Shown: in pieces, positions 15,889-18,765 of the stretch
How positions within the stretch are numbered: position 1 is the first letter of the stretch
Layout: each line of letters begins with the position of its first letter
Assembly: GCA_009692705.1 (NCBI GenBank)
Contig: SHYR01000005.1
Span: forward strand, 1-54,083
From: Dehalococcoidia bacterium
GTDB taxonomy: Bacteria; Chloroflexota; Dehalococcoidia; UBA2979
Reading direction: 5' to 3'
Length of the DNA: 54,083 bases
Position numbers and translations under genes: made by a program
The notes under the pieces: generated by a model
Seen by the model: only the letters and a program-made list of their open reading frames with translations
What the model was told of the DNA's origin: nothing
The model's database searches: none

Positions 15889-18765
15889 GTGACGACCGCC
15901 TCGCAGCCGTACCGGGTGACCACGCTCAGCGGCAAACAGCTCGTCTTCCGCTTCGGCGATGGCCGCGCCGACGGCGATGCCACGATGCGCGACCTGTTGG
16001 GCGGCAAGGGCTCGGGCCTCGCGGAGATGAGCAGCCTCGGCGTCCCGGTGCCGCCGGGTTTCACTATCACGACCGAGGTCTGCAACGCCTTCTACGCGCT
16101 GGGCCGCAGCTACCAGAAGAGCGGGCCGGACTGGTATCGCTACTGGCGGCAGGAGCGGCTGCGCTGGTACCACGCGCTGCGGCTGCGACGGCAGCACCTG
16201 CGGTTGCGCGACGCCGAGGCCGCCGAGCAGCCGCAGCTGGAGGCACAGGTCCGCGCCGGCGTCGACCACATCGAGCGCCTCGCCGGCGCGCGCTTCGGCG
16301 ATCCCGACAACCCGCTGCTGGTCTCTGTGCGCTCCGGCGCGCGCGCCTCCATGCCCGGGATGATGGACACCGTGCTCAACCTCGGTCTCAACGACGTGAC
16401 CGTCGAGGGGCTCGCGCGCCGCTCCGGGAACCCGCGCTTCGCGTGGGACTCCTATCGCCGCTTCGTCGCCATGTACGGCGATGTCGTGCTCGGCATGAAG
16501 CGCGACGGCGACAGCGACGAGGACCCGTTCGAGGCGCTGCTCGACGCGAAGAAGCGCGCGCGCGGCGTGGCGATCGACACCGCGCTGGACGCCGGCGATC
16601 TGCGCGCGCTGGTGGACGAGTACCGCGCCGCGATCCACCGCGCGCTGGGCATCGAGTTCCCGCAGGACCCCTGGGAGCAACTGTGGGGCGCGATCGGCGC
16701 GGTCTTCAACTCATGGGAGAACCCGCGCGCGGTGATCTACCGCGACCTGCATGGCTACCCGTCCTCGTGGGGCACCGCCGTCACCGTGCAGGCGATGGTC
16801 TTCGGCAACCTCGGCGACGACTGCGCGACCGGCGTGGTCTTCACGCGCGACGCGGCCACGGGCGCGCGCCGGCTCTCCGGCGAGTTCCTGGTCAACGCGC
16901 AGGGCGAGGACGTGGTCGCGGGCACGCGCACGCCGCAGCCGATCCTGGCCGCCGACCGCCAGCCGGGCGCGCCGCCGGCGCTCGAGCAGGCGATGCCGAC
17001 GGTGTTCGCCGACCTCCAGCGCGCGTGTGCGACGCTGGAGGCTCACTTCCACGACATGCAGGACGTGGAATTCACCGCGCAGCAGGGGCGGCTCTGGATC
17101 CTGCAGACCCGCAACGGCAAGCGCACCGGCCGCGCAATGGTCACGATCGCGGTCGACCTCGTCGCCGAACGGCTGATCGACGAGCGCACCGCGCTGCTGC
17201 GGCAAGACCCGGAGCAACTGCAGGACCTCTTCCACCAGGTGATCGACCCCGCCACCGCGCGCGACGTGATCGCGAAGGGGCTGGCGGCCTCGCCGGGCGC
17301 CGCCGTCGGGCGCGCCGTCTTCTCCGCGACCGAGGCCGCCGAATGGGTGTCACGCCACGAGCCGGTGATCCTCGTGCGCACCGAGACGAGCCCGGAGGAC
17401 ATCCAGGGCATGATCGCCGCGCAGGGCATCCTCACGGCGCGCGGCGGGCTGACCTCGCACGCCGCCGTGGTCGCGCGCGGCTGGGGCAAGTGCTGCATCA
17501 CCGGCTGCGGCGCGCTCCAGGTCGACTACCGCAACGGGCGCTGCACCGTCCGCACCGCCGATGACCGCACGGTCGTCATCAGTCGCGGCGACTGGCTCTC
17601 GATCGACGGCAGCAGCGGTGAGGTGATGCTCGGCCGGCTGCCGCTGCTCGACGCCCAGCCGCCCCCCGAGTACCACCGGCTGATGGCGTGGGCGGACCGC
17701 GCGCGCCAGCTGCGCGTGCGTGCCAACGCCGACACCCCGCGCGACGCGCAACTGGCGCGCGAGTTCGGCGCCGAGGGCATCGGCCTCTGCCGCACGGAGC
17801 ACATGTTCTTCGGCGAGGAGCGCATCCTCGCCGTGCGACAGATGATCTGCGCCGAGGACGGGGCGGGGCGCCACGCGGCGCTCGCCAAGATCCTACCAAT
17901 GCAGCGCGAGGACTTCGCAGGCATCCTGCGCGCCATGGCCGGCTACCCGGTCACGATCCGCCTGCTCGACCCGCCGCTACACGAGTTCCTCCCCGGCACC
18001 GACGCGGAGATCGCGGAGGTCGCGCGGGCGCTCGTGCTGCCGGTGGAGCGCGTGCGTCAGCGCGTCGAGGCGCTGCACGAGTTCAACCCCATGCTCGGGC
18101 ACCGCGGCGTGCGGCTCGCGATCACGTTCCCCGAGATCTACGAAACGCAGGTGCGCGCGATCATGGAAGCCGCCTGCCGGCTCGCCGCCGAGGGCGTGGA
18201 CGTGAGGCCCGAGATCATGGTGCCGCTGGTCGCCACGGAGGAGGAGCTGCGCCGCGTCCGCGAGCTGGTCGCCGGCGTCGCCGAACGCGTGATCGAGCAG
18301 ACGGGCACCCGCGTCGCGTACACGGTCGGCACGATGATCGAACTGCCGCGCGCCTGCGTGGTCGCCGACCGCATCGCCGAGCACGCCGACTTCTTCTCGT
18401 TCGGCACCAACGACCTGACGCAGACCACGTTCGGGCTCTCGCGCGACGACGCCGGGCGCTTCCTGCCGTCGTACCTCGAGCAGCGCGTGCTGGAGCGCGA
18501 TCCGTTCGTGGCGATCGACCGCGAGGGCGTGGGCGGGCTGATGCGGCTGGCGATCGAGCGCGGGCGCAGCACCAAGCCCAGGCTCAAGATCGGCATCTGC
18601 GGCGAGCACGGCGGGAACCCGGAGTCGGTGGAGTTCTGCCACCAGTCGGGTCTGGACTATGTCTCCTGCTCGCCCTACCGCGTGCCGATCGCGCGTCTGG
18701 CCGCCGCGCAGGCGGCGCTGCGCGCCTACGCCAGCGGCAGCGCGCCGGCCCCGATTCCGGACTGA
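15889..18765 (+). CDS. ppdK: Pyruvate, phosphate dikinase (with a ~39-aa foreign insertion)
   Basis: LLGGKG, SVRSGARASMPGMMDT, GGLTSHAAVVARG phospho-His motif, GIGLCRTEHMF, FSFGTNDLTQ, ICGEHGG; GTG 15889 after AGAGAGG. Confidence 0.96.
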   Translation: MTTASQPYRVTTLSGKQLVFRFGDGRADGDATMRDLLGGKGSGLAEMSSLGVPVPPGFTITTEVCNAFYALGRSYQKSGPDWYRYWRQERLRWYHALRLRRQHLRLRDAEAAEQPQLEAQVRAGVDHIERLAGARFGDPDNPLLVSVRSGARASMPGMMDTVLNLGLNDVTVEGLARRSGNPRFAWDSYRRFVAMYGDVVLGMKRDGDSDEDPFEALLDAKKRARGVAIDTALDAGDLRALVDEYRAAIHRALGIEFPQDPWEQLWGAIGAVFNSWENPRAVIYRDLHGYPSSWGTAVTVQAMVFGNLGDDCATGVVFTRDAATGARRLSGEFLVNAQGEDVVAGTRTPQPILAADRQPGAPPALEQAMPTVFADLQRACATLEAHFHDMQDVEFTAQQGRLWILQTRNGKRTGRAMVTIAVDLVAERLIDERTALLRQDPEQLQDLFHQVIDPATARDVIAKGLAASPGAAVGRAVFSATEAAEWVSRHEPVILVRTETSPEDIQGMIAAQGILTARGGLTSHAAVVARGWGKCCITGCGALQVDYRNGRCTVRTADDRTVVISRGDWLSIDGSSGEVMLGRLPLLDAQPPPEYHRLMAWADRARQLRVRANADTPRDAQLAREFGAEGIGLCRTEHMFFGEERILAVRQMICAEDGAGRHAALAKILPMQREDFAGILRAMAGYPVTIRLLDPPLHEFLPGTDAEIAEVARALVLPVERVRQRVEALHEFNPMLGHRGVRLAITFPEIYETQVRAIMEAACRLAAEGVDVRPEIMVPLVATEEELRRVRELVAGVAERVIEQTGTRVAYTVGTMIELPRACVVADRIAEHADFFSFGTNDLTQTTFGLSRDDAGRFLPSYLEQRVLERDPFVAIDREGVGGLMRLAIERGRSTKPRLKIGICGEHGGNPESVEFCHQSGLDYVSCSPYRVPIARLAAAQAALRAYASGSAPAPIPD

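Follow-up and report, generated by a model that had tools for sequence, protein, structure and literature searches.

A glycyl-tRNA synthetase-like segment in frame within the pyruvate phosphate dikinase of a Dehalococcoidia bacterium

How did 39 residues resembling a piece of a glycyl-tRNA synthetase (GlyRS) come to lie, in frame, inside the pyruvate phosphate dikinase (PPDK) of a Dehalococcoidia bacterium? The ppdK gene in question is found on contig SHYR01000005.1 of assembly GCA_009692705.1, of which positions 1 to 54,083 of the forward strand, hereafter called the window, were analyzed. A sequence-only reading of the window had noticed the extra residues and proposed that illegitimate recombination had captured a synthetase helix into a surface loop, possibly adding an RNA- or partner-binding module, with an assembly chimera as the alternative. 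Our analysis established that the insert is homologous to the GlyRS stretch directly after motif 2, the likeness being far above chance. On balance, we favor a genuine lineage-specific insertion in which DNA of the organism's own glyQS gene, encoding the alpha2-type GlyRS, would have been copied into a variable loop of ppdK and tolerated there without a dedicated function.

The extra segment in PPDK and its likeness to GlyRS

The protein encoded by ppdK is clearly a PPDK. It scored 1274.4 bits against TIGR01828 (cut-off 843.45), and the three domains PPDK_N (PF01326), PEP-utilizers (PF00391) and PEP-utilizers_C (PF02896) were all detected. In an alignment of 67 PPDKs, more than 200 columns were invariant and every one of them was retained in the window's protein, including T535, S536, H537 and C917-G918-E919-H920, in agreement with the earlier remark that the catalytic motifs are intact. 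We take His537 to be the catalytic histidine of the PPDK mobile domain, and the roles of T535, S536 and the C917-H920 residues are likewise presumed here.

Within this protein, the sequence NAFYALGRSY is separated from PQLEAQV by the 39 residues (Table 1), as had been described. In all 28 relatives aligned at this site, from 18 genome loci and 10 library proteins, only two residues, P[DEAGP], lie between these flanks, and in the 67-row alignment the 39 residues of the window's PPDK stand against exactly 2 in 66 out of 66 other PPDKs. At the DNA level, the relatives read TAC CCG GAC GGC CTC GAG and the window reads TAC, then the 117 nt, then CCG CAG CTG GAG, so that ppdK without the 117 nt is one codon shorter than the ppdK of relatives. 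The reading frames of GlyRS and PPDK coincide through the insert, which has 9 Arg per 39 residues. When compared with solved PPDKs, query residues 41-88 aligned with residues 10-57 of the C. symbiosum chain and query residues 129-250 with residues 60-175, and in the structure-set alignment the insert takes the place of C. symbiosum residues 58-59. The insertion site is a two-residue variable position in the nucleotide-binding domain; its putative loop nature is read only from how variable the replaced pair of residues is.

The source of the segment was sought in several ways. A profile made from the GlyRS of 26 relatives was run, without filters, against the 16,682 six-frame open reading frames (ORFs) of the genome, and the best match was the insert itself (E 4.5e-8), covering positions 245-279 of the 486 profile positions; the runners-up were ProRS- and SerRS-like frames (E 3e-4 and 1.4e-3). 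The insert scored 36.3 bits, a value reached by none of 2000 composition-preserving shuffles, the top one scoring 7.3. A sequence search of the PDB returned 7 matches, the five best of which were all GlyRS: 8t5n (E 9.3e-4), 8sld, 8u2q, 1b76 and 1ati. The resemblance to the segment after motif 2 of alpha2-type GlyRS, first noticed in the sequence-only reading, was thus confirmed both by the profile and by the database check. When a 175-residue query spanning the site was compared with 40 relatives, their PPDKs matched as two pieces (residues 1-47 and ~88-175), and residues ~46-88 matched a separate locus in each relative genome, within open frames of ~440-560 aa. One such frame scored 647.7 bits against NF003211 (glycine--tRNA ligase) and 514.7 bits against TIGR00389.

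The alignment with the alpha2 enzyme (GlyQS; 8t5n, 8sld and 1ati) places the 39 residues on its post-motif-2 helix-loop, at residues ~239-274 of 8t5n and 8sld, with the pattern W-x-x-Y-W-x-x-E-R-x-x-W ... L-R-x-R shared between the two. In all 26 GlyRS extracted from relatives, motif 2 precedes the pattern W-x-x-Y-W-x-x-E-R-x-x-W-...-L-G-...-L-R-x-R-D-H-...-E-L-S/A-H-Y-S. The segment belongs to the catalytic core of these class II synthetases and is not a binding appendage. Of its 14 positions conserved at 88% or more, the insert keeps 10, two of the four losses being at the junctions, and at the variable positions it equals the consensus in 9 out of 25 cases, a pattern to be expected if a functional, though divergent, GlyRS had been copied, and not if the piece were a long-decayed relic. 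The segment's invariant Gly and His are both replaced in the window, the Gly, present in 25 of the 26 GlyRS, by Arg. The insert-bearing PPDK does not itself qualify as a GlyRS, as it covers only 35 of the 486 profile positions, without motifs 1-3 and without the anticodon-binding domain.

Other searches were less informative. A phmmer search with the 39 residues gave just two matches at E <= 0.001 in a library of 1.84 billion proteins, for which so short a query does not allow strong statistics. The better match was a GlyRS fragment of 99 aa (E 6.8e-4, 53%), and the second one, a low-complexity repeat protein, was rejected as compositional. No Pfam family matched the insert plus flanks at E <= 1.

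Distribution of the insert and its junctions

The distribution of the insert was explored with a 49-residue query made of the insert plus 3 and 7 flank residues. In the family, 89 of the 98 other genomes matched it, giving 90 matches in frames of 71-707 aa, none of which was PPDK-sized; the frames matched are of the size of GlyRS. In the class, 186 out of 300 genomes matched, with frames of at most 679 aa among the 149 matches listed. In a library of 5.8 billion proteins, the segment was carried only by the window's own protein; the next best among library proteins of 534-1700 aa was 53% identical over residues 60-160 and has no insert, and no insert was seen in shorter PPDK fragments among the best 120 of 6248. 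A word-indexed search with the insert alone returned only the protein itself among 21 candidates. Neither a protein-pattern search nor an exact 45-mer search of metagenome_contigs found the insert, nor did a scan of genome_contigs. As it is absent from all other PPDKs examined, from the aligned relatives to the family and class genomes, the insert does not represent a loop routinely present in some PPDK subfamily.

One match of the family search stood apart. In G364 (G364:C1:218926-219054; L063 1527-1655, minus strand), the query matched a 71-aa frame at E 1.9e-4. This frame proved to be an off-frame Arg-rich reading within an alpha/beta-hydrolase-like gene, and the match was rejected as chance; it shows the level that can be reached by composition alone.

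The possibility that the join was made during assembly was then addressed with contigs assembled separately for each public run, by an assembler different from that of the window, and placed on positions 15700-16700. The left junction was found in contigs of three runs from two studies. Two of these runs, X1 and X2 (study P1), gave contigs of 757 and 706 nt at a depth of ~7 that are identical to the window from 15700 to 16178, through the left junction, and in both runs PPDK restarts in separate contigs, at 16248 (X1) and 16243 (X2), with 0 differences. The third run, X3 (study P2), gave contigs covering 16017-16178 and 16149-16281 at depths of 2.7 and 2.2, the first of which spans the left junction and the second the right one, again with 0 differences. 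The flanks are identical between samples, with 0 differences over 15700-16178 and 16248-16700. Run X4 had zero depth across 16108-16243, and X4-X24 account for small shares only. Because the flanks share just a 9-mer and the left junction appears in three independent builds, with both junctions in one of them, a join made by the assembler alone, the alternative put forward by the sequence-only reading, is unlikely.

The same freshwater samples (X1, X2 and X4; 15992-16371) also contain far commoner related PPDK genes without the insert, at depths of 9-51. In one example, at a depth of 44-51, 16104 is joined to 16309 with 90 letters between them, where the window has 204.

Table 1. Coordinates of ppdK, the insert and the repeats and variable stretch at the insertion site (window positions).
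Feature	Position	Strand	Remarks
ppdK, pyruvate phosphate dikinase (PPDK)	15850..18765	+	971 aa, intact; TIGR01828, three Pfam domains, invariant columns
In-frame insert from glyQS (alpha2 GlyRS) gene, post-motif-2 segment	16114..16230	+	117 nt = 39 aa
Left copy of 9-nt direct repeat GCCGCAGCT	16103..16111	+	2 nt ahead of insert
Right copy of 9-nt direct repeat GCCGCAGCT	16230..16238	+	Starts on insert's last base
Imperfect internal direct repeat	16155..16173 and 16179..16197	+	19 nt, 79% alike, spacing 24
Between-sample variable stretch	16179..16228	+	X1/X2 contigs: 7 other letters and 2 one-base gaps

Origin of the insert

If the insertion is genuine, ~115 nt of glyQS coding DNA would have been copied in the sense orientation, and in frame, between ppdK codons 88 and 128, at the cost of one codon relative to the ppdK of relatives. 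The likely route would be a single copying event of one of two kinds: either a template switch of the microhomology-mediated type, during replication or break repair, or the capture of a DNA fragment through Ku-dependent end joining at a double-strand break. Searches for Ku were positive in 7 of 12 family relatives and in 9 of the 21 genomes searched, and negative in the window's assembly, which is 77% complete. Slippage at the internal quasi-repeat may have followed the copying. All conserved PPDK residues are intact, and the piece is read through as a putative extra loop rich in Arg, Trp and Tyr, presumably neutral and tolerated without a dedicated function. Illegitimate recombination, as had been proposed, is a plausible origin.

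Both short repeats reported earlier exist: GCCGCAGCT occurs at 16103 and 16230, and the 8-mer ACGCGCTG at 16094 and 16172. Of 5000 dinucleotide shuffles, 9 contained a flanking repeat like GCCGCAGCT, in a test designed once the repeat was already known. As its copies are 127 nt apart and differ in codon phase, the repeat does not represent a plain in-frame duplication of the target. No weight was given to ACGCGCTG, since the region holds 18 repeated 8-mers compared with a shuffle mean of 7.6. The internal repeat doubles an H-x-L-R-L-R motif in the insert peptide. An origin from a hairpin or quasi-palindrome was rejected, the DNA fold (z -0.53) being no better than that of shuffles. So was a mobile repeat: no second copy of the 171-nt region was found genome-wide, only short GC-rich chance matches, the best of which (in C3; 87% over 44 nt) fell in unrelated DNA flanked by a rhodanese-like ORF and others. 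Several genome copies and a palindromic structure, as expected of miniature inverted-repeat transposable elements (MITEs) or palindromic elements, were not observed for the insert. An intein or mini-intein was set aside, 39 aa being too short and the GlyRS homology clear.

As to the donor, the organism's own glyQS is the most likely one, judging from sequence comparisons. The closest GlyRS all come from the host family (G377 at 61% and G021 at 60%, then G379, G001 and G372), and nucleotide identity of the insert to the glyQS of relatives is at most 73/99. GC content at third codon positions (GC3) is 0.949 in the insert and 0.949 in the rest of ppdK, with a mean of 0.952 for 117-nt windows. An own or closely related donor is favored because the best GlyRS matches lie in the host family and GC3 is host-like.

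Several observations weigh against the favored reading as a whole. The glyQS gene itself was not found in the assembly, where neither TIGR00389 nor PF02091 gave a match (1.18 Mb, 77% complete) and where tblastn searches with the GlyRS of eight relatives gave the PPDK insert as the best match each time. Among the GlyRS in the libraries searched, even those of the same genus, identity to the insert does not exceed 61%, and the median identity of the insert to 23 family GlyRS is 0.44, when their pairwise median is 0.64 and that of the lowest member 0.49; either the insert has diverged or the organism's own glyQS is unusually divergent. The insert is known from one genome only, and the right junction was seen only in X3, at a depth of 2.2, in what is possibly the source sample of the window. 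In addition, the X1 and X2 contigs leave the window sequence at 16179, cease to match at 16228 and extend for 42 (X1) or 182 (X2) letters unlike PPDK; no contig of these two runs was shown to bridge 16228-16243, that is, the right junction.

The X1/X2 contigs deserve a closer description. Their changes comprise a base lost at 16179, a T gained after 16183, C16183A, A16188G, C16198T and four more near the end. The one-base loss and gain form a compensated deletion/insertion pair in the 3' half of the insert, and the changes turn the Arg of the window back to the Gly found in nearly all GlyRS, making these contigs more GlyRS-like. The letters beyond 16228 match nowhere on 15700-16700. The second copy of the internal repeat begins at 16179, precisely where these contigs depart, and in X3 the two contigs have exactly 30 nt in common (16149-16178), the mark of a graph fork located there. 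The X1/X2 contigs may cross via shared words into the glyQS of the organism itself, in which case donor and insert would be identical over at least 31 bases and the event recent. They may also represent an allele with a longer insert, or a rearrangement.

These data bear on two other accounts of the locus. One is that the site carried a longer, or a different, insertion or rearrangement containing glyQS, from which the 117-nt form derives and which X1/X2 would represent, with a deletion plus local error-prone synthesis having restored the ppdK frame in the short form. The X1/X2 contigs match the window exactly at the left junction and over the first 65 nt before acquiring 7 changed letters and 2 gaps within 50 nt, have the invariant Gly and continue for at least 182 further letters unlike PPDK, all between otherwise identical flanks, and slippage would indeed be expected to give a departure at the internal quasi-repeat. 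However, the same picture would be obtained if the contigs merely crossed into the organism's glyQS through shared words, and the contigs showed no right-hand junction belonging to a longer form; we regard this derivation as unlikely. The other account is an assembly-graph artefact, in which ppdK is really free of the insert and the contig path runs through glyQS-derived words. The presence of the insert in one assembly only, a glyQS missing from the bin, X1/X2 contigs that enter the insert from ppdK and never return (with breaks at 16228-16248) and the meeting of the two X3 contigs at a fork would all fit. Such an artefact, however, requires shared words of at least 31 letters at both junctions, far more than the 9-mer that the flanks have in common, and the ppdK and glyQS of relatives show no such likeness. 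The left junction was recovered in separate builds of three runs, at a depth of ~7 in two of them, and X3 bridges both junctions without a difference. Moreover, the insert length is a multiple of 3 and both frames are kept, which a random graph join would produce in about 1 in 9 cases or fewer. We therefore consider the artefact distinctly unlikely.

The remaining accounts accept the insertion and differ on its donor or its fate. The fragment could have come from the glyQS of another organism, as foreign DNA captured at a break, and the absence of any sampled GlyRS above 61% identity, together with a distance to the family GlyRS exceeding the distances among these, is what such a donor would leave. 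Yet the GC3 of the insert matches the extreme value of the host, a composition that none of the 20 glyQS genes of relatives listed approaches (overall GC 0.39-0.71), and the nearest matches lie in the host's own family, so a foreign donor appears very unlikely. Alternatively, selection might keep the insert as a new PPDK module, for example a basic aromatic helix pair serving RNA or partner binding or regulation. The frame is open, the GlyRS-conserved residues are mostly kept, Arg is abundant and the insert occurs in samples of two studies. Against this, it is confined to one lineage and is polymorphic within it, down to a compensated frameshift pair that replaces a conserved Gly; no family or domain model matches it; and the segment belongs to the GlyRS catalytic core, being a buried-core segment of the fold and not a known binding module. 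The binding module suggested by the sequence-only reading thus finds no support, and its maintenance by selection seems most improbable. Just as improbable is a young, evolving module still in sequence contact with glyQS and giving PPDK a new interaction: the mosaic from 16179 would then be explained by gene conversion between ppdK and glyQS or by their recombination, and the Arg/Trp/Tyr-rich helices would contact RNA or GlyRS itself, for example.

Relation to known systems, and neighboring features

The tolerated copy of glyQS that we favor most likely represents a fresh example of a known mutational kind and not a new system. In templated insertions, as produced by break-induced replication of the microhomology-mediated kind (MMBIR) or fork stalling and template switching (FoSTeS), and in end-joining capture, a short copy of an unrelated locus is likewise found inside another gene. 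PMC8421209 ties templated insertions to MMBIR, and PMC4937565 describes an elevated variant density near breakpoints; the insert resembles such events in being absent from the orthologues of relatives, non-mobile and marked by extra differences clustered near one end. Unlike the eukaryotic cases, it involves a bacterial host and two housekeeping genes, and the donor reading frame is kept. The literature that we found on templated insertions was eukaryotic work only, and none was found on a GlyRS piece within PPDK, the combined-term search yielding one unrelated plant paper. Rickettsia palindromic elements and MITE-like repeats also add in-frame peptides to conserved enzymes, where they are tolerated in loops, but these elements are multi-copy palindromes, whereas the insert is single-copy, has an ordinary fold and is of protein-coding origin.

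Long insertions are common in conserved enzymes and their source can almost never be traced. Here the source could be identified: 39 residues from the core of a class II synthetase, read in the same frame, inside an unrelated enzyme of central metabolism that is left intact. The case would document how short gene pieces seed new protein loops in a free-living bacterium, as a prokaryotic counterpart to the templated insertions of yeast and human cells. Segments of this kind await annotation pipelines and structure predictors, and analyses of domains or phylogeny could be misled by the insert. If the between-sample variation is truly allelic, it would offer a natural before-and-after series on the trimming and tolerance of an insert, and the divergent X1/X2 contigs could reveal both the donor and the age of the event. 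Were the insert a module after all, a bacterial enzyme would have been caught gaining a segment copied from another essential gene.

The genome differs from those of relatives in size and composition. The assembly consists of 58 contigs that total 1.18 Mb; genomes of the same genus are about twice as large (2.3-2.8 Mb), although its completeness is put at 77%. It is also much richer in GC than its relatives: the window has a GC content of 0.733 and ppdK a GC3 of 0.949, compared with 0.39-0.71 for the overall GC of the relatives' glyQS. In the window, ppdK is flanked by a divergent gene for an HD-domain phosphohydrolase (14624-15724, minus strand) and by a glmS-like gene (18774-20618, minus strand). 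Further upstream, an ORF of 342 aa (13330-14358, minus strand) has a hydrophobic N-terminal stretch and a sub-threshold match to CARDB (21.1 bits, cut-off 22.7).

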